From Thermaceae bacterium (GTDB lineage: Bacteria; Deinococcota; Deinococci; Deinococcales; Thermaceae): a stretch of DNA of 64,000 nt. Every line of letters begins with the position of its first letter. Positions within the stretch are counted from its first letter, which is position 1. A program made the translations under genes and the position numbers. This document shows positions 1,590 to 17,601 of the stretch, one piece after another. A model generated the notes under the pieces. That model was not told the DNA's origin, ran no database searches, and saw only the letters and a list, made by a program, of their open reading frames with translations. The stretch covers positions 5,784 through 69,783 of the forward strand of contig JADMIM010000008.1 of NCBI GenBank assembly GCA_015478585.1. The letters run 5' to 3'.

Positions 1590-3203
1590 TTAGCCACGCT
1601 GGGGGTGAGTGGAGAGTTCCCTGGCGACCCAGGTCACTGGAACCGAACCAAATTCCAGAAGCTTGTCGTGGAAGGCTCGAAGCTCCCCACCGAGTTTCTC
1701 TCGCAAATCTCTTATGGCCTGCGTTCCCAGCCAGTACATCAGCCGGGTGGCTGGATAAAGCGAGTTGCGGGCGGTTTCCGACCAGGCTCGCCCTGCGGCT
1801 ATCCCCACTTCCTCGCGGTAGAAAGCCCGCATCTGCTCTAAGTTCCAGACCCCTCGGTGCAAGCGAAGATCCCCCAGGCACATCGCAGCGTTGCGCAGCT
1901 CGGCGTGCTTGAGTACCAGCCACTCTCTGGGGGTATAGAAGTTTTCGGCCTCCAGCATCAAATCCTGCACGTAGCAGGCCCAACCTTCAATCATTGTGCC
2001 GCCCGAGAGCATTGCAATCCCCGCAGCGCAATCCGTTCCGACCAGCCGTCCTAGGCGAACCTGCGAAGCCCTGGCCCTGGCATTTTGGGTGTGGTGGCCG
2101 ATAGAGCCGTGGTGAACGACGTGGGTAATCTTGATGGTAGCGAAGTTTTGACCGCGCAGATAGGCATTGACATTGTCTCCAGGAGGGAAAACCCAATAGA
2201 CGCTGCCACTCGAGGCCCGGCCTGCTGGCGGCGAGCGATAAAATAAGAAATATAAATCCCCGGCGATACCCCTGGCCCACTCCGGCAAAATCTGGAAGCT
2301 CAGGCTGTAGTCTCGAGCTGGAGTCACCAATCCTGCTGCGTCAGCCTGCTCGAGCGCCCGCTGATTCCACCGCTCATAGGTCGGAATCACGTCCTCCAGC
2401 GCGGGATGCTCGTTTTCTAAGGCTGCCAACTGCTCTCGCCAGTCTCGAGATGGGTCGAGTTGGGCCGCCATCCCTGCGAGTTCGTTGCGGTAGCGCTGGA
2501 AGCCCTCTAGCGCCAACACTTCGGCTTCTTGGGGGCCAAGGGGCAACCCGTGGGCCTCACGCATCAGGAACTCGAGGTATTCCTCGCCACAAGCGGGGTT
2601 GGCCTGGGAGTGAGACTCCAGACCCGCTGCGAAAGAGCGGATCGCTTGAATTGCAGACTGTGTGGGCCGCTCGAGCTGTTCCGACCAGAACCGGTGAAGC
2701 CGCAGCCCCTGGTCTAGCAGCCGACCCAGCGCACTGCACTCGAGTCTCGCCCGCTGCACCCAATCGGCGGGAATCGCCCGATTGGCTAACCACTGTTGGC
2801 CCGACTTCAGGAAATCGGGGATGGCCCCTAGCCTTTGCCGCAAATCTTCGGGATTGCGCGGCGGGTCGCTCGGCAGCAGCAGTGAAATCAGGCCGAAGGC
2901 GACTTCGCCCGTGAACCAGGCCGGATTGTGGTAGCGCGGGCGTTGCTGCAACTCGCGGATGGCGACGCGGATTTGCGCTTGTAGCATTTGGGTTTCCAAG
3001 CGCTCAATGCTCGAGTTTCCGGGCGGGAGCTTATCACTTTCCTGACGCAATTCTTCCAGGGTCAAACCTTCGCGCTCGATAGCCCCTGCATCGGCAGGTG
3101 GGAGGCGATGGTCATGACCGTCCAGCCCCATAAAAGTCGCGTCCACCGGTCGAAACTCGGTGTACAACTTCAGAAATCGCTCGAGCAGGGCCTGCGAACT
3201 CAC
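1590..3203 (-). CDS. DUF885-family putative metallopeptidase (HHxxxGH variant)
   Basis: N-terminal P.DATFMGLDGHDHRLP, HVVHHGSIGHHTQ, IEGWACYVQDLM and C-terminal YWLGTQAIRDLRE...FHDKLLEFGSVP resemble DUF885 conserved blocks; last gene of the minus-strand operon. Confidence 0.7.
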   Translation of the reverse strand: MSSQALLERFLKLYTEFRPVDATFMGLDGHDHRLPPADAGAIEREGLTLEELRQESDKLPPGNSSIERLETQMLQAQIRVAIRELQQRPRYHNPAWFTGEVAFGLISLLLPSDPPRNPEDLRQRLGAIPDFLKSGQQWLANRAIPADWVQRARLECSALGRLLDQGLRLHRFWSEQLERPTQSAIQAIRSFAAGLESHSQANPACGEEYLEFLMREAHGLPLGPQEAEVLALEGFQRYRNELAGMAAQLDPSRDWREQLAALENEHPALEDVIPTYERWNQRALEQADAAGLVTPARDYSLSFQILPEWARGIAGDLYFLFYRSPPAGRASSGSVYWVFPPGDNVNAYLRGQNFATIKITHVVHHGSIGHHTQNARARASQVRLGRLVGTDCAAGIAMLSGGTMIEGWACYVQDLMLEAENFYTPREWLVLKHAELRNAAMCLGDLRLHRGVWNLEQMRAFYREEVGIAAGRAWSETARNSLYPATRLMYWLGTQAIRDLREKLGGELRAFHDKLLEFGSVPVTWVARELSTHPQRG

Positions 3204-4336
3204 CTCCTTGCTCCTTTGGGGAGAGCGGATGGCAAATCCACCCAGCGCCGCTCAAAGTGGGCCTGCACGATGGCATCCACCACCTCTTGGCTTTTGGCCC
3301 CGTCGTAGAAGGTGCATTCCTGGGGGGTATGGTCTAAAATCTCGTCCACGAAATGCCGCACCAAATTGCGGTAATAGAGTTCGGGCCAGGGGGTGTGCAG
3401 GTCGGTTCCGGGTGGATAAGCCCAGACCGGCAGCTCGACTTTTTTGAACTCCACCTGGTTGGGCGTGGCGAAGTGCAGGGTCTCAGCCACCCCGAACTCA
3501 GTGACCAGCCGAGCCACCGCCGCACCCTTGGAGCCATAGACCCGCAGCTCCACGCCGGGATAGTTGCCCACCGCGATATACGAGGTTTGCAGCATCCCGT
3601 GTGCCCCTGATGCAAACTCGGCAATCGCCACCGTGCCGTCCTCGACCTCGATGCGCTGGAGGTCTTGGCCGTAGCCCCGCACCACCCGCTCGGGCACGAA
3701 GTTCTGCATGGTCGAGGCCACGCTTTTGTACTCCCCTACGCACCAGCGTACCAAGTCCAGCAGGTGCGAGCCGTAGCCTACGATGCTGCTGGGAATCAGC
3801 TTGTTCCAGTCGGCTCCTTCGGGCACTTGCCGCAGTGGAAAATAGGGGTCGAGGAACTGGGAGTTTTGCTCGAGGCCGTGTACGTGGAAGATCTGACCCA
3901 GTCTGCCCTCGGCAATCCACTTTTGAATCTGCCGGATGGCAGGTGAGTAGCGGAAGGTGAAACCCAGCTTGGTACGCACGCCTTTTTCTTCCGCGGCTTT
4001 GGCGATGGCGAAGGCATCCTTGGCCTCGCGGGCCAAAGGTTTCTCGCACAGTACGTGTTTCCCAGCCTCAATGGCCGCATAGCTGAGGGGCAGGTGGGTG
4101 TCGGTGGGGGTACACACGTCCACCATCTCCACCTCGGGGTCGGCCAGGAGTTCACGGTGGTCGGTATACACCTTCTCAATACCGAACTTCTCGGCCATGG
4201 CCTGTGCCCGCTCCGGCACGATGTCGCAGATGGCAACCAAGCGGGCACGCTCAAAGGCAGCGTAGCCGGGCAGGTGGGCCTTCTCGGCCCAGGCGTGGGC
4301 TCCCAGCACCCCCACGCCGAGACGTTTGTCGCTCAT
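3200..4336 (-). CDS. Gfo/Idh/MocA family NAD(P)-dependent oxidoreductase
   Basis: N-terminal Rossmann fold, VCTPTDTH, GKHVLCEKP motif, YGSHLLD. Confidence 0.88.
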   Translation of the reverse strand: MSDKRLGVGVLGAHAWAEKAHLPGYAAFERARLVAICDIVPERAQAMAEKFGIEKVYTDHRELLADPEVEMVDVCTPTDTHLPLSYAAIEAGKHVLCEKPLAREAKDAFAIAKAAEEKGVRTKLGFTFRYSPAIRQIQKWIAEGRLGQIFHVHGLEQNSQFLDPYFPLRQVPEGADWNKLIPSSIVGYGSHLLDLVRWCVGEYKSVASTMQNFVPERVVRGYGQDLQRIEVEDGTVAIAEFASGAHGMLQTSYIAVGNYPGVELRVYGSKGAAVARLVTEFGVAETLHFATPNQVEFKKVELPVWAYPPGTDLHTPWPELYYRNLVRHFVDEILDHTPQECTFYDGAKSQEVVDAIVQAHFERRWVDLPSALPKGARR

Positions 4337-5433
4337 GGCAACTCCTTTGCGATGCTGCGGACGTAAGCCTCGAGTTCGTCGTAGTTGTGAAAGCCCAGTT
4401 GGCGCTCGCCGCGCTCGATTTCAAGAATCATCTCCGAGAGCTTCTCTACTAGCCGGGTATCCGCCCCCGCCGCCTTCCCGTAGCGGATCAGGTGTGAACT
4501 CATGTCCCCGACCTCCGAGGGCCGCTGGCGGTAGACGATATCCCACCAAATGCCCGAGCCTTTCTTCTTGAACTCGTGTTGATTGGGCTGCTGGTCTTTT
4601 TTGAGCAGCCACATGGCGTGGTTGATGTTGTCAAGCAGCTTCTGTGTGTCCGCCGGGGTTTTGGGCTTGTAGTTGGCGGGGTCGAAGAAGTCGAAGGCTT
4701 CCACTGTGATTCCATTGGCTTCGGCGATTTCCAGCGCCTCTCGCACCACCGCACCCGCCACCCGCGCGTAGCGTTCCACCCCCAGGGTTTGGTGGATACG
4801 AGCGTCGGCTAGGGCGCTAAAGATCACTTGTTGAGAGTAAACCTCCTTGGCCCAGATTTGCCCCCAGATGTTATGCGAGAGTTGAACCTTGGTGAGCGAC
4901 TCGAGCATCTTGGTCAGCTCCAAAAGCCTGGGAGTGAACTCTGCGGTGCTCATCTCGCCCAGTTGAATCGGCCCCTCGTGGACGAACTCGAGGTAGCCGG
5001 GGTCTACGAGTGCGCCACCGTAGTTGGGAATCGAGCCTACCACCCGCTCCATGCCGCCTAGCCCGGCCTCCTTCAAAACCCCGGCTATGACCGGCTCGTT
5101 GAAACCGTTCTGGAAGGAGACGATAAAAGTCTCAGGTGATATCAGCGGCAGAATCTGCCGCAGTGCGCCCTCGGTGTGCTGCGACTTGGTGGCGATCAGA
5201 ACAGCCCCGAGCGGCCCGTTTTGTTCGAGGTGCGCGGGCAACTGGTCAGGGGTTAGGGCTTTGACCGGGATGATCATCTCGCCACGAATGCCGTCTATAA
5301 ACAGCCCTTGGGCATTCATCGCTGCCACGTGTTCTTTCCAGCGGTCTACCAGCACTACCTCGTAGCCGGCTTGGCTCATGTACGAACCCGCCAGCCCGCC
5401 GATGGCTCCAGAACCGATAATCGTAACTTTCAT
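4333..5433 (-). CDS. Ketopantoate reductase (ApbA/PanE)-like oxidoreductase
   Basis: IIGSGAIGG, IATKSQHT, SFQNG, WAK and SE motifs; longer than typical PanE, with a divergent C-terminus. Confidence 0.75.
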   Translation of the reverse strand: MKVTIIGSGAIGGLAGSYMSQAGYEVVLVDRWKEHVAAMNAQGLFIDGIRGEMIIPVKALTPDQLPAHLEQNGPLGAVLIATKSQHTEGALRQILPLISPETFIVSFQNGFNEPVIAGVLKEAGLGGMERVVGSIPNYGGALVDPGYLEFVHEGPIQLGEMSTAEFTPRLLELTKMLESLTKVQLSHNIWGQIWAKEVYSQQVIFSALADARIHQTLGVERYARVAGAVVREALEIAEANGITVEAFDFFDPANYKPKTPADTQKLLDNINHAMWLLKKDQQPNQHEFKKKGSGIWWDIVYRQRPSEVGDMSSHLIRYGKAAGADTRLVEKLSEMILEIERGERQLGFHNYDELEAYVRSIAKELP

Positions 5434-5451
5434 CTGCCTCCTTTGAAAACC

Positions 5452-5484
5452 GCTCTACCTCTGAGAGGGGGCTGGGGTGAGGGC
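5452..5484 (+). repeat. CCCTCT...AGAGGG-GGGGTGAGGG palindromic repeat
   Basis: GCTCTACCTCTGAGAGGGGGCTGGGGTGAGGGC; same family as 18573, 55354 and 63671. Confidence 0.55.
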
Positions 5485-6365
5485 TATAAGCGAGGGTCGA
5501 GTGCATCACGCAACCCATCGCCCAGAAAGTTGATTGCTAGCACCGTAATCAAGATAAATAGGCCCGGAAACAGGGCCAGCCAGGGGGCTTGGGAAAGCCA
5601 ACCCTGGGCCGCGTTGAGCAGGTTGCCCCAGGTGGGCGTGGGGGGCTGCACGCCCAGCCCGAGAAAGGAAAGGGCCGACTCCAAGAGGATGGCGTTGCCC
5701 ACCGAAAGGGTGGTGGCTACCACGATGGGGCCGACAGTATTGGGCAGGATGTGGCGGAACATGATTCGGTTGTTAGAGCCCCCCAGGGCCCGAATGGCTT
5801 CCACATACTCCGCCGAGCGCAGCTTCAAAAACTGTCCCCGCACGATGCGGGCAGTGCTCATCCACCCCAGCCCACCGATAATCCCTACCAACAGCGCGAC
5901 ACTGGGGTGGAGTATCCCCGAGAGCAATATGACCAGGGGCAGTAGCGGAATCGAGAGCATCACATCGGTAAAGCGCATCAGCAAGGGGTCAACCCAATGT
6001 CCGTAGAAGCCCGCCAAAGCCCCCACCAAGGTACCCAGCAAGGTGGCGACCAGTGCACTCAAAAGCCCGACTCTCAGAGAGACTCGAGCCCCGTACAGCA
6101 CTCGAGTGAAACTGTCACGGCCCAGTTCGTCGGTGCCCATCCAGTGTTGGGAGCTGGGTGAGCGAGGCTGCCCCATCAGGGCCACGTTTTGCTGATCGTA
6201 TCCGTACGGCGTGAGCACTGGGGCCAGGATGGAAACCAACCCCAGCAAGACCAGAATGCCTAAGCCAGCTACGGCCAGTTTGTGCTTGAAGAAGCGGTGC
6301 AAGACCTGACCGAGAAAAGACTCTCGCCGGGGAAGCCAGCGGGGAATGGACTGGCTTTTATCCAT
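5484..6365 (-). CDS. Peptide/nickel ABC transporter permease (OppC/DppC-like)
   Basis: HWMGTDELGRD, EYVEAIRALGGS (EAA loop), HILPN, LSFLGLGVQPPTPTWG. Confidence 0.92.
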   Translation of the reverse strand: MDKSQSIPRWLPRRESFLGQVLHRFFKHKLAVAGLGILVLLGLVSILAPVLTPYGYDQQNVALMGQPRSPSSQHWMGTDELGRDSFTRVLYGARVSLRVGLLSALVATLLGTLVGALAGFYGHWVDPLLMRFTDVMLSIPLLPLVILLSGILHPSVALLVGIIGGLGWMSTARIVRGQFLKLRSAEYVEAIRALGGSNNRIMFRHILPNTVGPIVVATTLSVGNAILLESALSFLGLGVQPPTPTWGNLLNAAQGWLSQAPWLALFPGLFILITVLAINFLGDGLRDALDPRL

Positions 6366-7311
6366 AGGAAATCCGGGGGTCTACCAGAGCGTAAATCAGG
6401 TCGGTGAGAAAGTTGGTCAGCACCAGAGCGAAGGAACCCAGCATCATCAACCCCATCAACACCGGATAGTCACGCCCGTTCATGGAGTCTATGAAGAGCC
6501 GCCCCATACCCGGCCAGGCGAAGATGGTCTCGGTGATGACGGCCCCTGAGAGGATGGTAGCGAAGTCCAGCGCCACCACCGTGATGACGGGAATCAGCGC
6601 GTTGCGCAGGGCGTGGCGGTAAATCACGATGCGCTCGGACAGCCCCTTGGCCCTGGCGGTGCGCACGAAGTCTTGGGAGAGTATATCGGTCATGCTCGAG
6701 CGCACATAGCGGCTCCAGCCCGCCACCGAGGCCACCGCCAGAATTGAGGCGGGTAGGGCCAGATGTTTGAGGCGGTCTACCAGAGAACCATCTCCAATCG
6801 TGACCATGCCTGCCGAGGGCAGCCAGTGCAGATACACCGCAAATAGCAGTTGCAGCATCAGTGCCAGCCAGAAGACCGGCATGGAGATGCCCAGAAAAGA
6901 AGTAAACGTTACCGCATGATCCAAAGCCGAGTAGCGCCGCACCGCGCTCAAAATGCCCAGGGGTATAGCGATGAGCAAGGACAGCAAAAAGGCTGTGCCC
7001 CCCAGGGCCAAAGTAGCGGGTATGCGGCTGGCGATATCCTGTACCACCGGGTCTCCGGTGCGATAGGAATAGCCCCACTGTCCCCGCATAAAAGCCCCTA
7101 CCCAGGCCAGATACTGAATCGGTAGCGGCTTGTCCAGCCCTAGAGCCACCTTCATTTCCCGCAAGGCTTCTTGGCTCACTGAAGGGTTATCCGCATATAC
7201 GTCAAGCGGGCCGCCGGGGGCCAGGTGAAGCACAGCGAACAAAATTAGCGAGACCCCCAGCAGCAGAGGGAGTATCCCCAAAACACGCAAAAAGACAAAC
7301 CGTACACTCAC
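6358..7311 (-). CDS. Peptide/nickel ABC transporter permease (OppB/DppB-like)
   Basis: LGLDKPLPIQY, DFVRTARAKGL, HALRNAL, ITETIFAWPGMG, RDYPV; GTG start at 7311 after a GGAGG RBS. Confidence 0.92.
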   Translation of the reverse strand: MSVRFVFLRVLGILPLLLGVSLILFAVLHLAPGGPLDVYADNPSVSQEALREMKVALGLDKPLPIQYLAWVGAFMRGQWGYSYRTGDPVVQDIASRIPATLALGGTAFLLSLLIAIPLGILSAVRRYSALDHAVTFTSFLGISMPVFWLALMLQLLFAVYLHWLPSAGMVTIGDGSLVDRLKHLALPASILAVASVAGWSRYVRSSMTDILSQDFVRTARAKGLSERIVIYRHALRNALIPVITVVALDFATILSGAVITETIFAWPGMGRLFIDSMNGRDYPVLMGLMMLGSFALVLTNFLTDLIYALVDPRISYG

Positions 7312-7378
7312 GAATCTGCCCCTCCATAAGCAGGCTACCCTGTCCAAGAGCTACTTCGGACAGGGTAGCAACCGAATA

Positions 7379-8968
7379 TTAGCGCTTAAGCCACCAGCGG
7401 CTGGTATCCACGAAGTTGGTCATGTTGGTGGGGTTGGGAACAAAGTTTTGTAGTTTGTCAGTAACGGCGATAATCGAGGGATTGGTGGTGATGGGCAGGC
7501 TTACAGCATCATTTGCCAGGATGTCTTGAAACTGGAACAGCAGCTCTTTGCGCTTGTCGGGGTCAATGGTGTTTTGGGCTTGTTTGAGAATCGTATCCAG
7601 CTTGGGATTGCTATAGCCCTGACCGTTGTTGGGGCCATCCGAGCAGAAAAACACGCAGTAGTTGGGGTCGGCAGAGGTAATCCAACCCGAGTAGAAGAGG
7701 TCGTAGTTTCCCTTATAACGCGCTTCTCGGAAGGCTACTCCGGCCTTGTTATCTGGCATGGCCTCGATACCGATATCCTTCAGATTGGCGATGATGACTT
7801 GTTGGGCCACCTCGTCGTTGGTACGGCCTGACTGGGACATGATCTTGAAGCTTAGCCGCTTGCCACCCTTGGCCCGGATGCCATCGGAGCCGAGGGTATA
7901 GCCTGCGGCATCTAGAAGCTGTTTGGCTTTGGCGGGGTCGTAGGTGTATTTGGGGAGATTGGGGTTATAGAAAGGGAAGACCGGCAGAACCACCGAATCA
8001 ATAGCTTCGGGGAAGCCCCCCAGGGCCTTAGAGATGGCCTCTTTATTAATGGCATAGGCAATGGCCTTACGCACGTTGATATCCTGTAAGACCGGGTTGC
8101 GGAAATTGAAATCCAGGTGTTGCCAGGACAGGATGCGGTTCTTGAGAATTTTGAGGCCCGCCACTTGCTTGAGGCTTTCTACTTGCGAATAAGGCACGTT
8201 ATAGGCCATCTGCACCTCACCCGACTTGAGCTGGGTGACGGCCGTGTTGGCATCGGGGATAATTTTGAAAATAATGCTATCCAAGTAGGGCAGTTGCTGA
8301 CCACTGGCATCCTTGCGCCAGTACAGGGGATTGCGCTTGGTGATTACATACTGCCCCTTGGCCCAGTCACTGACTACGAAGGGGCCGGTACCCAGAGGTT
8401 TTTGATTGTAGGAGTCGGTGTTGAGATCTTTGCCCTCGAGGGTGTGTTTGGGCAGTATGCCAAAAGTAAACAAGGTAGAAGCAAAGTCGGGGGCTACGTG
8501 CTTGTAGTAGACCACTGCGGTCTGGGAGTTGGGACATTCGATGTGGTCCACGTCCTCGGTGCCATCCTTGGATTCGGCGATGAACTTGGGGTTCTTTACC
8601 GCTTCCCAGGTGAAGGTCACATCGTCACAGGTAAAAGGCTGACCATCCGACCACTTGACTCCAGGGCGCAGGTGATAGGTAATCACCATTTTTTGCCCCC
8701 CGTCAGTTAGTTTGATGCCTCCGTTCTTGAGGGTGGGCACTTCGGTCGCCAGTACCGGCACGTACTGGGCCTTGGCATCGGGTGCCAGCAAACCCTCGGC
8801 CACCGCGGCTTGTACGTCACCCAGATAGCCCGTCGAGTACACATTGAGGGTATCAATGTCATAACCCAGGGCCACGGTCAGGGTTCCCCCTTTCTCTTGA
8901 GCCAGAGAGATTCCGCCTAGCAGAATAAGAGCACCAACCAACAGCCCACCCATCGGCCTATACTGCAT
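7379..8968 (-). CDS. Family 5 (peptide) ABC substrate-binding protein
   Basis: Signal peptide, LRPGVKWSDGQPFTCDDV, PLGTGPF, VRKAIAYAINKE; ATG 8968 preferred over GTG 8989 on RBS spacing. Confidence 0.92.
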   Translation of the reverse strand: MQYRPMGGLLVGALILLGGISLAQEKGGTLTVALGYDIDTLNVYSTGYLGDVQAAVAEGLLAPDAKAQYVPVLATEVPTLKNGGIKLTDGGQKMVITYHLRPGVKWSDGQPFTCDDVTFTWEAVKNPKFIAESKDGTEDVDHIECPNSQTAVVYYKHVAPDFASTLFTFGILPKHTLEGKDLNTDSYNQKPLGTGPFVVSDWAKGQYVITKRNPLYWRKDASGQQLPYLDSIIFKIIPDANTAVTQLKSGEVQMAYNVPYSQVESLKQVAGLKILKNRILSWQHLDFNFRNPVLQDINVRKAIAYAINKEAISKALGGFPEAIDSVVLPVFPFYNPNLPKYTYDPAKAKQLLDAAGYTLGSDGIRAKGGKRLSFKIMSQSGRTNDEVAQQVIIANLKDIGIEAMPDNKAGVAFREARYKGNYDLFYSGWITSADPNYCVFFCSDGPNNGQGYSNPKLDTILKQAQNTIDPDKRKELLFQFQDILANDAVSLPITTNPSIIAVTDKLQNFVPNPTNMTNFVDTSRWWLKR

Positions 8969-9049
8969 AAGTATCCCCACCTCAGCCACCTCCTACAACG
9001 CTACCCTGAGCCGCTCCAGCGGAGATGATTCGGGGTAGATGTGATTGCA

Positions 9050-9078
9050 ACTTTATCGAGATAGAGTAGTATTGTCAA
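9050..9078 (-). promoter_or_regulatory. Sigma70-type promoter of the ABC/oxidoreductase/DUF885 operon
   Basis: On the minus strand, TTGACA (9078-9073) + 17 nt + TAAAGT (9055-9050). Confidence 0.65.
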
Positions 9079-9100
9079 TAACTTCCAAAAGGAGTAGATT
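9072..9100 (+). promoter_or_regulatory. Sigma70-type promoter of the DUF885/IclR operon
   Basis: TTGTCA (9072-9077) + 17 nt + TAGATT (9095-9100); overlaps the -35 of the divergent promoter. Confidence 0.55.
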
Positions 9101-9114
9101 CCATTCTACGGAAT
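9098..9114. promoter_or_regulatory. Candidate IclR-family operator
   Basis: Palindrome ATTCC-N7-GGAAT resembling IclR-type TTCCG-N5-CGGAA boxes; overlaps the plus-strand -10/+1; an IclR gene lies in that operon. Confidence 0.55.
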
Positions 9115-9157
9115 AAGATAGCCTATGGAATCCAAAACCGCTTCTATGGAGGATGCA

Positions 9158-10357
9158 ATGATTGACCCGCACACCCCGGCTCATAAACCCGACCAGGTGC
9201 TAGGAGAGCGCTTGAGTGCACTAACTATTGGTATGGATCGCCTCGAGCGCCGCCTCAATGGGGGTGAAGGAGCCCTCGATTCGGAGGGCTTGGTACCGAT
9301 TTACCTGGGAGACCAACTGTTTTCTCCTACCGAACTCTCTGGCTGGGACGAGGCTTTTGAGCAATTGGAGACCCTTGGAGCGCAGGCTAAAAGCTATCTC
9401 CCAGGGCCACGCCGACGGTTTTTGCTCGACATGACCGATTCGCTGCGTGCGGCAGCCCAGCTTTTTAGTGGACAGGAGCTGGGATTCGCTGAGAAACTCG
9501 AGCGCTTGGTAGGCGTGCCGGCCCAGCCGGTGGCCCCCGAGCAGCTACAGGCCATGCAAGCCGAACTAGACCAGTTGCTGTTGGCCAGCGGATATCGCCT
9601 GGGCGGTCTGGCCGAGCGGGTAGCTCGCTGGGAAGCCGAGCGCTTTGTGGAGCCACAGAAGCTCGAGACCCTTTTTGAATCCCTGATGACCGAGGCCCAG
9701 CAGCGCACTGATGAGCGGATTTTCCCTACCGGGGACTACCATATGCGGCTCAACCTGGTGCGGGGCGTACCTTACAGCGCCCGGTGCAGCTTCAACAAGG
9801 GCCAGATGGACTTGAACGCCGACCTACACTTTACCCCCTCGGGTCTCAAGCACCTCGTCTGTCATGAAGTGTTTCCGGGTCACTCGACCCAACTGCTCTA
9901 CACCCTCGAGGGGGCTAGAACCGGCAAAAGCTCGCCTGACGCGCTGCTTTGTACGGCTAACACCGTAGTGGGGGCTATCCAAGAGGGCATTGGCGACCAA
10001 GGGATTCACCTGATTGGCTGGGTGGAATCGAGTGACGACGTGCTCCATCTGGCCTTGCGCAGGCTACGTTCGGCGGCGGCCACCAGCGCGGCTTGGTATC
10101 AGATGGGGGAGGGCTGGCCCTTAGAGAAAGTACGGGCGTTCCTGCAAGAAACTGCCTTCCCACAGGAAGTCTGGCTCGAGGGCCGGTTGCGCTTCGCCGC
10201 TCATCCCTTCCGCGGGCCGTTTATCGCCTCCTACTGGTATGGCGATGAGGCTGTGCGCGAGATGCGGGAGAGGGCAGGCCAGGCCCGCTTACCGGAGTTT
10301 GTGGAGTTTCTCTACGGCCAGATGAACTCTACGGCGAGCTTGCGGATGTGGGCCTGA
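9158..10357 (+). CDS. DUF885-like putative Zn-metallopeptidase (short form)
   Basis: HLVCHEVFPGHSTQ (HExxPGH), QEGIG, SYWYGDEAV; GGAGG RBS upstream of ATG 9158. Confidence 0.6.
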   Translation: MIDPHTPAHKPDQVLGERLSALTIGMDRLERRLNGGEGALDSEGLVPIYLGDQLFSPTELSGWDEAFEQLETLGAQAKSYLPGPRRRFLLDMTDSLRAAAQLFSGQELGFAEKLERLVGVPAQPVAPEQLQAMQAELDQLLLASGYRLGGLAERVARWEAERFVEPQKLETLFESLMTEAQQRTDERIFPTGDYHMRLNLVRGVPYSARCSFNKGQMDLNADLHFTPSGLKHLVCHEVFPGHSTQLLYTLEGARTGKSSPDALLCTANTVVGAIQEGIGDQGIHLIGWVESSDDVLHLALRRLRSAAATSAAWYQMGEGWPLEKVRAFLQETAFPQEVWLEGRLRFAAHPFRGPFIASYWYGDEAVREMRERAGQARLPEFVEFLYGQMNSTASLRMWA

Positions 10358-11148
10358 TGGCGAAAATCATGCTCGAAAACCACGAAACTGCTAGCGGCTC
10401 GGTGCGGGCGGTGGAACGAGCCTTGCAACTGGTCGAGGTGTTTGCTCGCTCGAGGGGGCCATTGGCAGTGACCGAGTTAGCTGCCGAGGTTGGGCTCCCA
10501 CCCAGCACCGTTCACCGCCTGGTGCAGACCTTGGTCAGCCTGGGCTACGTGGTGCAGTATCAGGAGTCCAAACGCTACGGCGTAGGGCGCGGTATCGCCG
10601 AGATTAACCGGGCCATGCTGCTGAAATACGAGTTTACCCAGTTTGCCGGGCCACATTTGGGAGCCCTGGTCGATGCCACCGGGGAAACGGCCAGCTTGGC
10701 GGCCTTGTATGGCACTTGGGCAATCTATTTGAATCAGGTCGAGTCGGCGGCGATAGTTCGGGTTTCTAACCCCATTGGCACCCTGGTTCCGCTGCACTGT
10801 ACCGCAGTAGGCAAGGTATTCCTGGCGGATTTTCGTGAACCCATGCTCGAGGAAACCCTCGAGTACGCCGGGCTCACAGCGCTCACCCCCAACACCCTTA
10901 CCAGCCGCGAGGCCCTCCAGCGTGAGCTGGAACAAGTGCATGCTCAGGGCTATGCCTTTGACGACGAGGAATATGCCCAGGGAGTGCGCTGTATTGCGGT
11001 GGGCTTGCGCGGCAGTTCGGGGGCGGTGGTTTCGGCCCTGAGTCTGTCTGGCCCAACCAGCCGAGTTAGCGATGAACGTATTCCAGCGCTGGCCCAAGCG
11101 GTGATGGAAATCGGGGGTCGTTTCGCTCAGCAGATGCGCAAGCCCTAG
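10357..11148 (+). CDS. IclR family transcriptional regulator
   Basis: SVRAVERALQLVE...GLPPSTVHRLVQTL HTH; PLHCTAVGKVFLA; GYAFDDEEY..GVRCIAV. Confidence 0.93.
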   Translation: MAKIMLENHETASGSVRAVERALQLVEVFARSRGPLAVTELAAEVGLPPSTVHRLVQTLVSLGYVVQYQESKRYGVGRGIAEINRAMLLKYEFTQFAGPHLGALVDATGETASLAALYGTWAIYLNQVESAAIVRVSNPIGTLVPLHCTAVGKVFLADFREPMLEETLEYAGLTALTPNTLTSREALQRELEQVHAQGYAFDDEEYAQGVRCIAVGLRGSSGAVVSALSLSGPTSRVSDERIPALAQAVMEIGGRFAQQMRKP

Positions 11149-11163
11149 TGCAGAGGATTTCTG

Positions 11164-12192
11164 ATGACCAAAGTGTTGATTTGTTCCTACCTCGAGCCTG
11201 AACACGTCGAGCGCATACGGGCGGTGGATTCCCGGCTCGAGGTGCTGTATCACCCCGAACTCCTGCCCAAGCCGCGCTATCCCGCCGACCACCTGGGGCA
11301 ACCCTTGCAACGCAGCCCCCAGGAGCAAACCCGATGGGAAGCGCTGCTGTCTGAAGCGGAAATCCTCTTCGACTTCGACTATACCGGGCTGGCTCAACTT
11401 CCCGAGCGAGCCCAAAAGGTGCGCTGGGTTCAGGCTACCAGTGCAGGTATTGGGCAGTTCGTCAAGCGCCAGGACTATAGCCGTATGGGAGTGGTTTTCA
11501 CCACTGCCAGTGGGGTTCATGCCAGGCCGCTGGCGGAGTTCGTGCTGATGGTGCTGCTCGAGCAGGTCAAGCAGGCTTCATTAGCCCGCCAACAGCAGCA
11601 GGAACACCTCTGGAAACGCTTCGCCACCGAGGAACTGACCGGCAAGACCCTAGCCATTGTCGGGCTGGGTAACATCGGGCGCGAAATCGCTCGCCTGGCC
11701 AAAGCTTTCGAGATGCGGGTGATCGCCAACAAACGCCGCAACAACCGGGAAAGCGCGACAGCGTTGGGGGTGGATCAGCTTTTTGCTTGGGATGAGCTTC
11801 ACCCGATGCTCGCCCAGGCCGATTTTGCCTGCCTCATCACCCCCCACACCCCCGAGACCGAAGGCTTGATGAACAAGGCTGCTTTTGCGGCAATGAAGCC
11901 CGGCGGGGTGCTCATTAATATTGCCAGGGGAGCCGTGCTGGTCGAATCTGACCTGCTCGAGGCCCTGGACTCTGGCAAACTGACTCACGCCGCCCTCGAT
12001 GTTGCTGCCGTCGAACCACTACCTTTCGATAGCCCGCTGTGGACGCATTCTAAGGTCACCATTTATCCCCACTCGGCCAGCACCAGCGCCCTCGAGAACG
12101 CCCGCCTGACCGAGCTTTTTTGCCAGAACCTGCGGCGCTATCTGGACGGGCAGCCACTCCTCAACCAACTCGATATCCAGAGGATGTACTGA
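11164..12192 (+). CDS. D-2-hydroxyacid dehydrogenase family protein
   Basis: IVGLGNIG, PHTPETEGL, INIARG, ALDV..EPLP, PHSAS. Confidence 0.9.
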   Translation: MTKVLICSYLEPEHVERIRAVDSRLEVLYHPELLPKPRYPADHLGQPLQRSPQEQTRWEALLSEAEILFDFDYTGLAQLPERAQKVRWVQATSAGIGQFVKRQDYSRMGVVFTTASGVHARPLAEFVLMVLLEQVKQASLARQQQQEHLWKRFATEELTGKTLAIVGLGNIGREIARLAKAFEMRVIANKRRNNRESATALGVDQLFAWDELHPMLAQADFACLITPHTPETEGLMNKAAFAAMKPGGVLINIARGAVLVESDLLEALDSGKLTHAALDVAAVEPLPFDSPLWTHSKVTIYPHSASTSALENARLTELFCQNLRRYLDGQPLLNQLDIQRMY

Positions 12193-13394
12193 TGGAGCGG
12201 TTGGAAATTACCGCCAGCGAATATCAAAGCCGAGTAAAAACCTTGCAGGGGCGTGTTGAGGCTGCTGGGTTCGCGGGTATGGTGGTCTTTGGGCCAGTGC
12301 GGGTCAGCTACCTGTGCGGATTTTTCTTTGCCAAGACCGAGCGTCCGGTGGCGTTGGTAGTTCCGGTCAATGGCAAACCGGGGATGCTGATTCCCCAGCT
12401 CGAGACCGATCACCTGCGCACCCAGTGTCCCCACATCGAAACTGTCCAGACCTACCCGGAATATCCGGGTGGCGGTTCGGGACGGCATCCCATGCTGTAC
12501 CTAGCTGATTTGCTGATGGAGTTAGGTCTGAAGAATAAACGCTTGGTCGCCGACCACGATGGCTACGAGAACCGCTGGGGCTACCGGGGGCCGAAGCTCA
12601 GTCAGGTATTGGGGCAGGCCGTGTCAGAGCACCTCGAGCTGATTGACGATGCCCGGATGGTCAAAAGCCCCGCCGAAATTGCACTCATCGAGGAAGCCTG
12701 CCGCTGGGGAGACCGTGCCCACCGCATCCTGCAAGACAAAATTGGGGTTGGGGCCAGTGAGCTGATGGTTTCGCAGGGCTCGAGCCTCGAGGCTACGCGG
12801 GAAATGCTGGCGGCGCTCGGCTCGCGTTACGTGCCCAAATCGCGCGAGGGTCTGCCCGCCAACGCTATGTTTATTCGCGGGGCCAACACCGCCAACCCGC
12901 ACGGCCTGCACCAGGGCGGCGGTGTACAGCCGGGCGACGTGTTGGTGACGGGAGCCTATGCCCTGATGGGTGGCTACGAGTCTGAACTCGAGCGTACCCT
13001 GCTCGTCGGGGAGCCCTCCGAGGACTTTGTCAAGTATTTCAATGCCATGCTGGCGGCGCAGGACGTAGCCTTTGCGGCGCTTCGTCCAGGCCGTACCTGT
13101 GCTGAGGTAGAGCAGGAGGTCTCGAGCTTCATCCGGGGTGAGTTGGGCCTGGGCGAATTGATGCGCCACCACACCGGCCACGGCTTCGGCCTCGAGGGGC
13201 ACGAGCACCCCTTTCTCGACCTCGACGACCCCACCCTCATCCAGCCAGGCATGATTTTCTCCGCCGAGCCGGGGCTCTATGTTCCGGATTTTGCCGGGTT
13301 TCGTCATTCTGACACCCTGCTCGTCACCGAAACCGGCTGCCGGGTGCTGTCGCAGTACCCACGCGACCTGGCCTCCTTGGTAATCACCGCTTGA
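12192..13394 (+). CDS. M24 family (Xaa-Pro-like) peptidase
   Basis: Creatinase-like N-domain, RMVKSPAEI, HHTGHGFGLEGHEHP, FSAEPGLY, FRHSDTLLVT; ATG overlaps the upstream TGA. Confidence 0.88.
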   Translation: MERLEITASEYQSRVKTLQGRVEAAGFAGMVVFGPVRVSYLCGFFFAKTERPVALVVPVNGKPGMLIPQLETDHLRTQCPHIETVQTYPEYPGGGSGRHPMLYLADLLMELGLKNKRLVADHDGYENRWGYRGPKLSQVLGQAVSEHLELIDDARMVKSPAEIALIEEACRWGDRAHRILQDKIGVGASELMVSQGSSLEATREMLAALGSRYVPKSREGLPANAMFIRGANTANPHGLHQGGGVQPGDVLVTGAYALMGGYESELERTLLVGEPSEDFVKYFNAMLAAQDVAFAALRPGRTCAEVEQEVSSFIRGELGLGELMRHHTGHGFGLEGHEHPFLDLDDPTLIQPGMIFSAEPGLYVPDFAGFRHSDTLLVTETGCRVLSQYPRDLASLVITA

Positions 13395-13472
13395 ATTGTG
13401 TCCAGACAAACCCCAGTTTTTTCTTCGCTGCTATAGCCCAATCGGGGAAGACACCGGTAGAATCAGGGTGAT

Positions 13473-13991
13473 TTGTCTATGCCCCTGGCCCTCGCTACCC
13501 TTAACCAGATGTCCCGCGAAGACTTTGTAAAGGCTGTGGGCTGGGTGTTCGAGGGTTCACCCTGGGTAGCAGAGCAGGTGTGGGTCACGCGGCCCTGGAG
13601 TAGTGTGGGGGTACTGCATAGGGCCATGTGTGAGATGGTGGAGCGGGCTCCGGTTGCCGCGAAGTTGACCCTGATTCGTGCCCACCCCGACCTGGGCAGC
13701 AGAGCTAAAATGGCTGAGGCCTCGGTAATTGAGCAAAAAGGTGCCGGTTTAGACAGCTTGAGCCCCGATGAATACGAGCAAATCCAAAATCTGAACCAGC
13801 GCTATACCGCCAAGTTTGGTTTTCCCTTCATATTTGCGGTCAAGGGCAAGACCAAGCTCGAGGTTTTAGCCGCTATGCACAGGCGGATGGCCCATTCTCG
13901 AGCCGACGAACTGGAAGAAGCCCTGGGGCAGATTTACCAGATTGCCCGGCTTCGTTTATCTGATAGCCTCGAGGGGGGTTTTAGTTCGTGA
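13473..13991 (+). CDS. uraD: OHCU decarboxylase
   Basis: VFEGSPWVAE, LIRAHPDLG, EQKGAGL, NQRYTAKFGFPFIFAVKG, EIARLRL-like C-terminus; start may be ATG 13479. Confidence 0.92.
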   Translation: MSMPLALATLNQMSREDFVKAVGWVFEGSPWVAEQVWVTRPWSSVGVLHRAMCEMVERAPVAAKLTLIRAHPDLGSRAKMAEASVIEQKGAGLDSLSPDEYEQIQNLNQRYTAKFGFPFIFAVKGKTKLEVLAAMHRRMAHSRADELEEALGQIYQIARLRLSDSLEGGFSS

Positions 13992-15295
13992 ATCCACTGC
14001 AACAAGACCGTTTGCGTACAGTCCGCTGGCCCTGGCTGATGGGGCTCCTGGCCCTGCTGGTTTTGGGTGAAGTAATTGCCCGGTTGGGGGGTTGGGATGC
14101 CCATGCCCGGGAGTGGCTCAACTTGCTGGTGCGGTTTTTTCACGTCATCTACGCCATTGCCTGGATTGGGGCCAGCTTCTACTTCATCTTCTTGGAGAAC
14201 TCCCTCGAGCGGCAGGGGGTGCGAGATGAGCTTTCGGGCAACATCTGGACGATTCACGGGGGCGGAATTTATTACCTGGAAAAATATAAAACCGCACCCA
14301 AGGAACTGCCCAAATACCTGCACTGGTTCAAATGGGATGCCTACTTCACCTGGATTACCGGGTTTTTGCTCTTGGTGATTGTGTATTATGCCGACCCCAG
14401 AGTGGCTTTGCTAAATCCCAACAGCACGCTCTCGAGCCCTGCGGCAATTGCTATTGCCCTGGGCAGCCTGGTCGTGGCCTGGCTAGTTTACGTGGGGCTT
14501 TCGCGCACCCCGCTCCTGCAAAAACCCGACCTGTTTATGTTGACAGCCCTGGTTCTGGTGGGACTCACGGCCTGGGGTCTGAGCCACATTTTTAGCGGGC
14601 GTGGAGCTTTTATCCATATTGGGGCCATGCTCGGCACCATCATGGCGGGCAATGTTTTCTTCGTAATTATTCCCTCCCAGAAGGCTTTGGTGAAAGCTGC
14701 CCAGGAGGGCAAGACCTTAGATCCAGCCTTCGTGAGCTGGGTGCAACTGCGTTCACGCCACAACAACTACCTCACTCTGCCGGTACTCTTCACCATGATC
14801 TCCAACCATTTTCCCAGCACCTATGCCAGCAACCTCAACTGGCTCATCCTGATGCTGTTGTTTGTGGCGGGGGTGGCGGTGCGGCACTTCATCAATGTGA
14901 CCGAGAAGGAACACCACATCACCCTCGAGCAGGGTGGGGCCATGCCCTATCTGCTGGTTCTGGCTGGGGTGATCGTGGTCGGTGCTTTTTACCTAACCGC
15001 CCCCAAAGCGGTGGCTACTGCCAGCACACAGCCGGCAACTTTCGCGCAGGTGCAGACCATTGTTACTCAGCGCTGCGCCAGTTGTCACGCTGCCAATCCC
15101 AGCCAAGCAGGTTTTGCCTCGGCCCCAGCGGGTATTATGCTGGACACTCCCGAGCGCATCCTGAGCCTCAAAGACCAGATTATTCAGGTTTCGGTCAACA
15201 CCAACTACATGCCCCTGGGCAACATCACCGGCATGAAGCCCGAGGAGCGCAACCTGCTGGGGGCTTGGTATCAGCAGGGGGCCAAAGATCCTTAG
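13988..15295 (+). CDS. puuD: Urate hydroxylase PuuD (membrane domain plus C-terminal cytochrome c)
   Basis: RFFHVIYAIAWIGASFYF, WTIHGGGIY, HWFKWDAYFTWITG, IMAGNVFFVIIPSQK, RSRHNNYLTLPVLFTMISNH; CASCH heme motif and a YMP axial Met; lies between uraD and uraH. Confidence 0.85.
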   Translation: MNPLQQDRLRTVRWPWLMGLLALLVLGEVIARLGGWDAHAREWLNLLVRFFHVIYAIAWIGASFYFIFLENSLERQGVRDELSGNIWTIHGGGIYYLEKYKTAPKELPKYLHWFKWDAYFTWITGFLLLVIVYYADPRVALLNPNSTLSSPAAIAIALGSLVVAWLVYVGLSRTPLLQKPDLFMLTALVLVGLTAWGLSHIFSGRGAFIHIGAMLGTIMAGNVFFVIIPSQKALVKAAQEGKTLDPAFVSWVQLRSRHNNYLTLPVLFTMISNHFPSTYASNLNWLILMLLFVAGVAVRHFINVTEKEHHITLEQGGAMPYLLVLAGVIVVGAFYLTAPKAVATASTQPATFAQVQTIVTQRCASCHAANPSQAGFASAPAGIMLDTPERILSLKDQIIQVSVNTNYMPLGNITGMKPEERNLLGAWYQQGAKDP

Positions 15296-15300
15296 GAGAG

Positions 15301-15930
15301 ATGATGTTTGACCTGTCTACACTGCTTGCGTTGTTGGGGGCTTCCATAGCCCTGGCCCTGCTGCCGGGGCCAAGCTCGATGCTGATTCTCTCGCGCAGCA
15401 TCTCCGGGGGCCGCGTGGTGGGCCTGGCGACTTGCCTGGGCAGCTTAGTGGGCTCGCTGGGGGTGGTGCTGGCAGCTGCGCTGGGGCTTTCGGCACTGCT
15501 GATGGCTTCAGACCTGGCTTTTGGTGTGGTGAAAATTGCTGGGGCGGTTTATCTGGTCTACATTGGCATCCGTACCCTTTTAGATAAACACGGCCTCGCG
15601 GCCCACGCCGTCGCCCCCATCACACCCCGGCAAGCCTTCGTCCAGGGCCTGCTGACCGACCTCCTGAACCCCAAAACCGCGCTGTTCTTCACGGCCTTTT
15701 TGCCGCAGTTCATCCACCACGAACGCGGCCTCGTAACGCTGCAATTCATCGTGCTGGGTTTTATTACTGTAGGAGTATTGGTAATTTATGCGACCACTCT
15801 GGCGATTTCGGCCTCGAGCGTTCGGGCTTGGCTGCTGCGGCATCCGGGCTTCGTGCGGGTGCAGTCGCGCATCGTGGGCTGCTTGTTTATCGGGCTGGGC
15901 CTGCGGCTGGCCTTGGCCCGCAGAGAATAG
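15301..15930 (+). CDS. LysE/RhtB family translocator
   Basis: LPGPS, GAVYLVYIG, LLNPKTALFF; GGAG RBS. Confidence 0.88.
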   Translation: MMFDLSTLLALLGASIALALLPGPSSMLILSRSISGGRVVGLATCLGSLVGSLGVVLAAALGLSALLMASDLAFGVVKIAGAVYLVYIGIRTLLDKHGLAAHAVAPITPRQAFVQGLLTDLLNPKTALFFTAFLPQFIHHERGLVTLQFIVLGFITVGVLVIYATTLAISASSVRAWLLRHPGFVRVQSRIVGCLFIGLGLRLALARRE

Positions 15931-15935
15931 CTTGT

Positions 15936-16292: not shown

Positions 16293-16321
16293 GATGAAGG
16301 CTGAAGGCTCGAGGAGTGTGA

Positions 16322-17563: not shown

Positions 17564-17601
17564 GGGTTTGCCATGGCAAACCCCTACGGGGTGGGAAATG
17601 T

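Follow-up and report, generated by a model that had tools for sequence, protein, structure and literature searches.

A divergent ten-gene locus and its distribution

The locus described here occupies positions 1590-13394 of a 64-kb stretch of DNA from a Thermaceae bacterium (assembly GCA_015478585.1, contig JADMIM010000008.1, positions 5,784 to 69,783 of the forward strand), which is referred to below as the window. It consists of two divergent operons containing two proteins related to the DUF885 family, a long one (DUF885L) in the left operon and a short one (P410) in the right operon. The remaining genes encode a family-5 solute-binding protein (SBP), two permeases, a Gfo/Idh/MocA dehydrogenase (Gfo), an oxidoreductase of the ketopantoate reductase (KPR) family, an IclR regulator, a 2-hydroxyacid dehydrogenase and an M24 protein (Table 1). 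All ten open reading frames predicted in an earlier note on this DNA were recovered at the same coordinates, with Pfam and NCBIfam matches to the families named there. The translational coupling that it described is also present, with overlaps of 4 nt (3200-3203), 4 nt (4333-4336), 8 nt (6358-6365), 10 nt (10348-10357) and 1 nt (TGATG, 12190-12194).

Table 1. Features of the divergent locus, with coordinates in the window.
Feature	Coordinates	Strand	Evidence
DUF885L, long DUF885 protein, 537 aa, cytoplasmic	1590..3203	-	Pfam PF05960, 157.5 bits
Gfo/Idh/MocA NAD(P) dehydrogenase (Gfo), 378 aa	3200..4336	-	Pfam
KPR-like, ketopantoate-reductase-family (ApbA/PanE-like) oxidoreductase, 366 aa	4333..5433	-	ApbA + ApbA_C domains
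OppC-type ABC permease	5484..6365	-	BPD_transp_1 + OppC_N; Opp4C 356.9 bits
OppB-type ABC permease	6358..7347	-	BPD_transp_1 + BPD_transp_1_N
Family-5 SBP, N-terminal signal peptide	7379..8989	-	SBP_bac_5, 292 bits
Divergent control region	8990..9157	.	Promoter scan, conserved palindrome
P410, short DUF885-fold gluzincin, 399 aa	9158..10357	+	Fold; Pfam match sub-threshold
IclR-family regulator, 266 aa	10348..11148	+	HTH_IclR + IclR_C
D-isomer-specific 2-hydroxyacid dehydrogenase, 342 aa	11164..12192	+	2-Hacid_dh_C
M24 'pita-bread' protein with Creatinase_N, 400 aa	12192..13394	+	Pfam

The start of P410 is most likely ATG 9158 rather than 9125 (giving 399 rather than 410 residues), because the sequence GGAGGA lies 5 nt upstream of it and because the database proteins are 394-399 residues long. 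Similarly, the M24 gene most likely begins at ATG 12192, which lies within the TGATG overlap with the stop codon of the preceding 2-hydroxyacid dehydrogenase gene, and not at 12120. The SBP probably begins at Met-8, position 8968.

An alignment of P410 homologues (A1) was used to fetch 80 loci from public genomes, which were then searched with all proteins of the window, and gene presence around P410 was counted in those 49 that are 18 kb or longer. The Gfo gene lies beside P410 in every one of the 49, DUF885L in 47, and the orthologous SBP and the KPR-like gene in 42 each, the latter being absent from spirochaetes. These loci span four phyla, namely Deinococcota, Alphaproteobacteria (Devosia, Rhizobium/Ensifer, Sphingomonas and Rhodobacterales), Eremiobacterota-like metagenome-assembled genomes (MAGs) and Spirochaetota. 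The neighbourhood conservation thus bears out the proposal that the two divergent operons form one functional unit, and with its importer, inducible-type regulator, cytoplasmic hydrolases and dehydrogenases this unit is indeed catabolic in style. It could be assigned to no known pathway when first described, and this still holds: literature searches on DUF885, on PF05960 and on any two or more of Gfo, KPR and DUF885 together returned nothing relevant and no published pathway.

Between Meiothermus and alphaproteobacterial proteins, identity reaches 66-72% for Gfo and 65-72% for the KPR-like enzyme, and 41-53% for the two DUF885-fold proteins. The genome from which the window derives is that of a Meiothermus. 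The closest database relatives of the cluster proteins come from Meiothermus and Deinococcus, and the closest locus with identical gene order belongs to Meiothermus granaticius. Among 41 genomes of the same order, the 3 with a P410 orthologue are also the 3 with a DUF885L orthologue, and within the genus the pair is present in no more than 2 of 25 genomes. Several strains of Deinococcus, Ensifer and Lichenicola have the locus on large plasmids. Because its occurrence within genus and order is so patchy, and because it is plasmid-borne in several strains, the module is accessory and horizontally spread. Its carriers come from mats, lichens, the rhizosphere and soil.

Around a common set of enzymes, the remaining genes differ from lineage to lineage. 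The IclR gene occurs in 16 of the 17 long Deinococcota loci and the M24 gene in all 17, and neither was found in the loci of other phyla; together with the 2-hydroxyacid dehydrogenase, these genes are lineage-specific add-ons. The Devosia soli cluster has a LysR gene divergent from an operon that runs VOC, P410, KPR-like, Gfo, DUF885, DppD, DppF, GhrA-like 2-hydroxyacid dehydrogenase, SBP and permeases. Spirochaetes show the order ATPases, M18 aminopeptidase, ALS-like thiamine-pyrophosphate (TPP) enzyme, Gfo, DUF885, SDR, two tandem P410 genes and GntR, and the Eremiobacterota-like MAGs the order DUF885, Gfo, KPR-like and DHDPS-family enzyme, divergent from GntR, a TonB-dependent receptor and P410. 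On plasmid pDFI1 of Deinococcus ficus, the left operon is extended by RraA, SDR and an aminopeptidase gene, and the 2-hydroxyacid dehydrogenase gene is missing. The earlier description of the locus as IclR-controlled therefore fits Deinococcota and has to be given up elsewhere, where the regulator is of the LysR type (Alphaproteobacteria) or the GntR/FCD type (Spirochaetota and Eremiobacterota-like MAGs). Nor is the 2-hydroxyacid dehydrogenase one conserved gene, being Ddh/PGDH-like in Meiothermus and GhrA-like in Alphaproteobacteria, and absent from the Deinococcus clusters, which have SDR and RraA instead.

The invariant core thus consists of the two DUF885-fold proteins and Gfo, usually accompanied by the KPR-like enzyme and an Opp-type importer, while the regulators and the downstream enzymes of 2-oxo and 2-hydroxy acids are exchangeable. 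The same core enzymes are found under regulators of three families, with an ABC importer in some lineages and TonB-dependent uptake in others, and such swapping of regulator and uptake system is typical of a mobile catabolic module.

Two kinds of deviation from the core were also observed. In two Deinococcales/Truepera MAG loci (L020 and L048), otherwise complete clusters lack DUF885L within 10 kb, and L048 has a second Gfo paralogue there instead; some lineages may thus be able to dispense with DUF885L or to replace it. Three spirochaete loci (L089, 9995-12401; L092, 9986-12378; L095, 8712-11188) contain two tandem, diverged P410 genes and no KPR-like gene; HExxPGH is present in both tandem proteins, and one has QEGIGDQAT replacing QEGIGDQG.

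The DUF885-fold proteins and the M24 protein

At the sequence level, P410 falls short of the DUF885 family. Its match to Pfam PF05960 scores 17.6 bits (cut-off 32.4; E=0.0032) and covers profile positions 355-504 only; no Pfam model matched above its cut-off, and a sequence search of the PDB found no relative. However, when the AlphaFold2 (AF2) model of P410 (pLDDT 94.5) was used in a Foldseek search, the top matches were the DUF885 crystal structures 3o0y, 3iuk and 3u24, with a probability of 1.0 and TMq of 0.43-0.57, followed by MATCAP (the tubulin carboxypeptidase) and ACE. The designation of the first gene of the right operon as DUF885-like, sub-threshold by sequence, is thereby confirmed by fold.

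The active-site region of P410 reads HEVFPGH...QEGIGDQG, an intact HExxPGH...E site. Residues H236, P240, G241, H242 and E276 are invariant in both alignments of the family (A1 and A2), E237 is invariant in A1 and present in at least 90% of A2, and HExxPGH and QEGIGDQG are retained in nearly all orthologues. P410 thus shares both fold and HExxPGH...E site with the crystallised DUF885 proteins (3O0Y, 3IUK and 3U24), to whose family DUF885L belongs by sequence, and with the wider gluzincin fold (MATCAP, ACE and neurolysin). They differ in that P410 is some 150-200 residues shorter than the DUF885 crystal proteins, and in that the latter are annotated as putative lipoproteins whereas neither P410 nor DUF885L has a signal peptide. 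The P410 family is small, with 488 cluster representatives among 1.84 billion, almost all of about 390-420 residues. On the strength of motif and modelled fold, P410 is predicted to be an active zinc amidohydrolase.

Distant paralogues of P410 (27-38% identity), found in relatives and metagenomes, likewise lie in Opp-type operons, where their neighbours include creatinase-like M24 proteins, AstE/AspA deacylases, hydrolases of the creatininase and isochorismatase families, class-III or DegT aminotransferases and further KPR-like genes. These operon neighbourhoods, at the level of the family only, are the reason for assigning to P410-type proteins a probable role in the breakdown of imported small amides; by analogy, they support a general function of such proteins as amidohydrolases of the cytoplasm whose substrates are small N-acyl or amidine compounds taken up by the cell.

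Two of the paralogous clusters are of note in themselves. One lies in a 5.4-Mb relative (L014, G024:C25:19000-38500, approximately 2750-13500), where a GntR gene is divergent from genes for a creatininase-family hydrolase, a DegT aminotransferase, a P410-like protein, a KPR-like protein, an AstE/AspA deacylase, a second KPR-like protein, an SBP5 protein and a class I/II aminotransferase; with a P410 paralogue at its centre, it appears to encode a further Opp-linked pathway for an amide, likewise uncharacterised. The other, on a Logan contig of SRR24201613 (L101, 247-10777), runs DUF3870, M24, SBP5, two permeases, AstE/AspA, P410-like, class-III aminotransferase and two ATPases, and so combines an ectoine-degradation-like enzyme trio with a P410 paralogue in one complete Opp operon. 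An M24 protein together with AstE/AspA and a class-III transaminase mirrors the logic of DoeA, DoeB and DoeD in ectoine degradation.

DUF885L, by comparison, matches PF05960 with 157.5 bits (cut-off 32.4) over profile positions 1-531 of 532, and its PDB relatives are 3u24, 3iuk and 3o0y. Yet its motif, HHGSIGHHTQN...EGWAC, keeps the metal ligands (the histidines and the Glu of EGWA) and has His in place of the catalytic Glu: VHHGSIGHH aligns with IHEAIPGHY in 3u24 and with FHEGVPGHH in 3iuk, so that HH stands where the crystallised proteins have HE and the gluzincin pattern HExxxGH is broken. The Glu of the zincin motif acts as the general base. Because HHGxxGHHxQN...EGWAC is invariant in all 57 cluster-associated DUF885L orthologues, from four phyla, the general base is absent from this protein by design, with the metal ligands remaining. 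As judged from these residues, DUF885L would either use its metal for a step other than hydrolysis or serve as a partner of P410.

The M24 protein has also diverged at its metal site. Residues G254, E265, H330, E359 and S373 align with D209, D220, H284, E313 and E327 of the Pyrococcus furiosus prolidase (1pv9), the five dinuclear-metal ligands of that enzyme. The G-E-H-E-S pattern is invariant in 17 orthologues (18 of 18 sequences), and three of the five metal ligands are therefore missing, for which reason the identification of the protein as a canonical M24B Xaa-Pro dipeptidase (prolidase) was rejected. From its sequence, it resembles the non-peptidase branch of M24, with creatinase and ectoine hydrolase, more than it does prolidase. 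Its match to the DoeA/EutD model TIGR02993 reaches 79.6 bits, against a cut-off of 613, and the cluster in the window contains no AstE/AspA gene; the comparison with DoeA is one of functional analogy only. A second M24 gene of the same genome (G000:C12:4218-5375) aligns to the ectoine-hydrolase model along the whole of that model, with 62.8 bits, far below the cut-off.

The picture of three peptidase-fold hydrolases acting on the imported compound, as drawn in the earlier note, is accordingly too simple, since a canonical catalytic site is present in P410 alone.

Redox enzymes, import and regulation

The KPR-like enzyme scores 114.6 bits against the PanE model TIGR00745, below its cut-off of 141.35, and a canonical PanE (177.9 bits) is encoded elsewhere in the genome (G000:C80). 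It is some 55 residues longer than the solved chains of KPR and D-mandelate dehydrogenase (291-314 residues). With its AF2 model (pLDDT 90.9), the top 50 Foldseek matches were all KPR or D-mandelate dehydrogenase, with TMt of up to 0.88. Its columns are 77% identical on average across phyla, and K196 and E307 are invariant, their equivalence to the catalytic Lys of the central helix (K176) and the catalytic Glu of the C-terminal domain (E256) in the E. coli enzyme having been judged by eye only. Because of the sub-cut-off PanE score, the canonical PanE elsewhere and the KPR/D-mandelate dehydrogenase fold, the protein is a second, divergent paralogue distinct from the housekeeping PanE, and is best modelled as a specialised oxidoreductase of 2-oxo acids or D-2-hydroxy acids. 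An identity as opine dehydrogenase was considered and rejected, as both sequence and fold searches of the PDB returned KPR and D-mandelate dehydrogenase only.

Gfo carries the EKP motif. Its best NCBIfam match is levoglucosan dehydrogenase (LGDH; NF052479), at 159.6 bits against a cut-off of 650, and its PDB relatives are 4h3v (an uncharacterised Kribbella protein), LGDH (6a3f), DgpA (7xr9) and scyllo-inositol dehydrogenase. By sequence it is thus closest to dehydrogenases of secondary alcohols in sugars and cyclitols. Membership of a levoglucosan or inositol pathway was rejected, however, because its scores fall well short of the cut-offs and the cluster lacks the partner genes; xylose-isomerase-like TIM-barrel genes were found in none of the loci examined. 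The closeness of Gfo to sugar and cyclitol dehydrogenases also qualifies the earlier suggestion that an acid moiety is processed by redox enzymes: the moiety may be a polyol or sugar and not only an acid.

The 2-hydroxyacid dehydrogenase of this locus is Ddh/PGDH-like and lies below all NCBIfam cut-offs. Across lineages, the accessory enzymes comprise Ddh/PGDH-like or GhrA-like dehydrogenases, SDR, an RraA-type aldolase/decarboxylase, a DHDPS-type aldolase and an ALS-like TPP enzyme, and by family analogy all of these would act on 2-oxo or 2-hydroxy acids.

Of the five components of an Opp/Dpp importer (SBP5, two permeases and two oligo_HPY ATPases), the cluster encodes the SBP and both permeases. 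It contains no ABC ATPase gene, and Opp-type ATPase pairs are found on other contigs of this genome, so that the locus is not self-contained, contrary to what had been supposed. In the Devosia and spirochaete clusters, the ATPases are encoded in cis. The best match, 60% identical to the in-cluster ATPase of Devosia, belongs to a complete Opp operon on contig G000:C122, and we infer that the ATPases are borrowed from an Opp operon on another contig. The PDB entries closest to the SBP are NikZ-II (8efz), AppA (1xoc) and NikZ (4oet). Nickel binding of the NikZ type is defined by a C-terminal HH-prong, formed by His511 and His512 in CcNikZ-II (10.1101/2022.10.03.510666). No such prong was found in the SBP, as its alignments to 8efz and 4oet end before the prong and its C-terminus contains no HH; the candidacy of the system as a NikZ-type nickel or metallophore importer was consequently downgraded, despite the closeness to NikZ.

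The regulator contains HTH_IclR and IclR_C domains and lies below every equivalog cut-off, its best NCBIfam match being BhcR (201 bits, cut-off 350). A promoter scan of the 135-bp divergent region found two back-to-back promoter-like sites with an overlapping -35 element (TTGTCAA, 9072-9078). The palindrome ATTCCATTCTACGGAAT, at 9098-9114, overlaps the -10 element of the plus-strand promoter and contains a candidate operator, TTCCR-N5-YRGAA (9099-9113), a pattern that occurs once in the window. The same pattern is present in 32 of 34 Deinococcota regions between the SBP and P410 genes; in the two loci that lack it, no IclR gene is adjacent. In Deinococcus-type loci, the operator is doubled, with a spacing of 33-34 bp. 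Approximately 50 boxes were counted in 8.2 kb of intergenic sequence, compared with 115 strand-counted matches in the remaining 535 kb. The cluster thus has both an IclR protein and a conserved palindrome in its promoter region, and on sequence grounds this position at a divergent promoter fits local control by IclR. Organic acids are the usual effectors of IclR regulators and of GntR regulators of the FCD type.

The surroundings of the cluster appear to lie outside the module. The left flank is ispG. The right flank, at 13473-19005 and onward to approximately 21124, holds a urate/ureide set comprising an OHCU decarboxylase, a PuuD-type Urate_ox_N protein, a LysE exporter, an M20 amidohydrolase and an allantoinase-like amidohydrolase. 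This set follows the cluster in two other Meiothermus loci (L016 and L017) and in no other lineage, and because this adjacency is confined to Meiothermus, the urate genes were rejected as a functional part of the module. Within the left operon, a C-rich element, CCCTCACCCCAGCCCCCTCTCAGAGG, was observed in the 50-nt gap (5434-5483) between the permease and KPR-like genes.

Candidate pathway and substrate

Taken together, these features make it reasonably probable that the locus, accessory and spread by horizontal transfer, serves the catabolism of a single small molecule that the cell imports. This compound is most likely a conjugate joined by an amide or amidine bond, which bears one or more carboxylates together with a hydroxylated part, either polyol or 2-hydroxy acid. 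In the scheme that we infer by analogy, both for each catalytic step and for the chemical class of the substrate, the secreted SBP and the two Opp-type permeases would import the compound, powered by ATPases from an Opp operon elsewhere in the genome. P410, as its motif and fold suggest, would then cleave a C-N bond in the cytoplasm, and in Deinococcota the metal-site-degenerate M24 protein may add a second, creatinase-like C-N hydrolysis. DUF885L could bind substrate as a partner of P410, or could itself be a metal enzyme that acts, without hydrolysis, on an oxidised intermediate. Gfo and the KPR-like enzyme, the translationally coupled and obligatory redox pair, would oxidise or reduce the hydroxylated moiety to a 2-oxo acid. 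Lineage-specific enzymes would pass the product to central metabolism, namely the D-2-hydroxyacid dehydrogenase here and, elsewhere, the GhrA-like enzyme, SDR with RraA, the DHDPS-type aldolase or the ALS-like TPP enzyme. Finally, IclR is envisaged to repress both operons through the TTCCR-N5-YRGAA palindrome until an acid of the pathway binds to it.

A substrate-inducible catabolic island linked to an ABC importer is a known type, built here from uncharacterised enzyme families. As in the divergent operons controlled by IclR proteins (pca/pob, kdg, all and bhc), an in-cluster IclR accompanies a TTCC/GGAA-type palindrome in the divergent promoter; unlike in those systems, the regulator lies below the equivalog cut-offs and is exchanged for LysR or GntR in other phyla. 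Ectoine and hydroxyectoine utilisation (EutD/DoeA of M24, the EutE/DoeB deacetylase of AstE-AspA and the DoeD transaminase) is likewise an inducible catabolism of a small nitrogen-containing carboxylate around an M24 protein, and clusters with P410 paralogues carry M24, AstE/AspA and class-III aminotransferase genes. The present locus, however, has neither an AstE/AspA deacetylase nor a transaminase, and its M24 protein reaches 79.6 of the 613 bits required. Gfo, KPR-like and DUF885-fold proteins lie outside the described Eut/Doe gene set. With the sugar pathways started by a Gfo enzyme (levoglucosan LgdA, C-glycoside DgpA and mannopine MocC), the locus shares a Gfo protein of the same broad clade, here an obligatory core component next to an ABC importer; yet the LgdB/DgpBC-type TIM-barrel eliminases and LgdC are absent, and the partners are zinc-hydrolase-fold and KPR-like proteins.

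Several observations weigh against the proposed module. No enzyme of the cluster reaches any NCBIfam equivalog cut-off, so that its chemistry is assigned by family analogy, and in the literature searched no activity has been demonstrated for DUF885. As judged by their motifs, two of the three proteins with a hydrolase fold lack canonical catalytic residues and may not be hydrolases. The downstream route may also differ among lineages, given that the accessory enzymes vary. Furthermore, the operator pattern is not enriched genome-wide, with 12 sites compared with 14 for a control pattern, and the support for the operator comes from its conserved position rather than from such enrichment.

A bolder proposal, which is offered tentatively and is more likely wrong than right, is that the four-gene core (the short HExxH and long HHxxH DUF885 proteins, Gfo and the KPR-like enzyme) constitutes an undescribed catabolic route for some widespread metabolite, the genes for whose degradation are orphan. 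Pantothenate or pantetheine would be the most concrete candidate, since no protein has yet been assigned to pantothenase (PMC10393543), and conjugates of sugars or cyclitols with amino acids the alternative, and the two DUF885-fold proteins would form a pair of a catalytic with a non-catalytic protein, or of a hydrolase with a lyase.

An unlikely but not a far-fetched substrate is a conjugate in which an amino acid is joined to a sugar or cyclitol: an Amadori or mannityl-opine-like compound, a bacillithiol- or mycothiol-type thiol or a mycosporine-like amino acid, for example. Gfo would oxidise the ring or polyol, and the DUF885-fold metal proteins would then release the amino or hydroxy acid by hydrolysis or elimination. 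The characterised Gfo relatives (LGDH, DgpA and scyllo-inositol dehydrogenase) oxidise the C3 of glucosides or cyclitol hydroxyls, a paralogous P410 cluster contains a DegT-type keto-sugar aminotransferase, the invariant loss of Glu from DUF885L would suit a non-hydrolytic, metal-assisted step, and the habitats of the carriers (mats, lichens, rhizosphere and soil) would also suit this class of substrate. However, genes for a glycoside hydrolase, a kinase, a deglycase or a TIM-barrel eliminase are absent from the cluster, the Gfo score of 159.6 bits is far from the LGDH cut-off of 650, and the literature on mycosporine degradation gave no support. Moreover, no gluzincin is known to act as a lyase.

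Rather unlikely is the catabolism of pantothenate or pantetheine, which is a specific version of the favoured module. The importer would bring in this pseudo-peptide, P410, and possibly DUF885L, would cleave the pantoyl-beta-alanine bond (and that of beta-alanyl-cysteamine), and the three dehydrogenases would convert pantoate to 2-oxoisovalerate, either through aldopantoate and dimethylmalate or through ketopantoate. The classical Pseudomonas pathway of Goodhue, Magee and Snell (1966) reportedly consists of one hydrolase and three NAD dehydrogenases, a need that the cluster parallels. In that pathway (pantothenase, pantoate 4-dehydrogenase, aldopantoate dehydrogenase and dimethylmalate dehydrogenase), an amide hydrolase and three NAD dehydrogenases act on a D-2-hydroxy acid, and the core of the present locus includes a KPR-family enzyme that is highly conserved (77%) and is not the housekeeping PanE. 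The RraA-type oxaloacetate decarboxylase/aldolase of Deinococcus and the DHDPS-type aldolase of Eremiobacterota-like MAGs would suit the cleavage of a 4-hydroxy-2-oxo or beta-keto acid. It also counts in favour of this reading that the protein behind pantothenase has yet to be identified (PMC10393543). Because the genes of the Pseudomonas pathway are unknown (PMC10393543), the likeness is one of pathway description, not of sequence, and the argument is purely analogical. The present locus differs from that pathway in its two DUF885-fold proteins and in its Gfo enzyme, which looks directed at sugars or cyclitols, and it lacks both an aldehyde dehydrogenase and a beta-alanine transaminase. The KPR-like enzyme lies below the PanE cut-off, spirochaete clusters have no KPR-like gene, and the M24, M18 and aminopeptidase accessories are left unexplained.

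It is improbable that the locus serves ordinary peptide scavenging, with an Opp/Dpp importer, prolidase and carboxypeptidases for Pro/Hyp-rich peptides and with dehydrogenases nearby by chance. Relatives do bear PGAP-style names such as 'Xaa-Pro peptidase family protein' and 'peptide ABC transporter', and an M18 or other aminopeptidase occurs in the spirochaete and Deinococcus versions. The dehydrogenases, however, are the most tightly co-conserved genes (49/49 and 42/49) and are coupled to DUF885L, the M24 protein lacks three of the five prolidase metal ligands and is absent outside Deinococcota, and hydroxyproline catabolic genes are missing. Most improbable is a system that takes up and recycles a metal (Ni/Co) or a metallophore such as an opine-type chelator, with a Nik/Cnt-like importer and enzymes that degrade the chelator, since the best PDB matches of the SBP to nickel-binding NikZ (8efz and 4oet), the top scores of the permeases on the 'nickel' model Opp2B (309 bits) and on Opp4C, and the extra histidines at the metal site of DUF885L are countered by the missing HH-prong that defines NikZ, by nickel-related models that are all below their cut-offs, by a KPR-like fold that is not that of opine dehydrogenases, by the lack of any CntL/CntM-like gene and by regulators of catabolic type (IclR, LysR or GntR) rather than NikR or Zur.

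DUF885 is a large family with crystal structures and no function, and P410-type proteins lie outside all Pfam models. The locus places DUF885L and P410 in a mobile, co-conserved set with a dedicated SBP and, in Deinococcota, with a regulator and operator, which makes their function directly testable. The invariant Glu-to-His replacement in DUF885L and the metal-site-degenerate M24 protein are clean cases of the re-use of peptidase folds. If the module turns out to act on a common metabolite (for instance a vitamin, compatible solute or glyco-amino-acid) whose breakdown genes are orphan, a gap would be filled in maps of carbon and nitrogen cycling by soil, mat and rhizosphere bacteria. Should the proposal of a four-gene core pathway prove true, it would provide the first physiological function for DUF885-type proteins, as well as new chemistry for a gluzincin without a general base.

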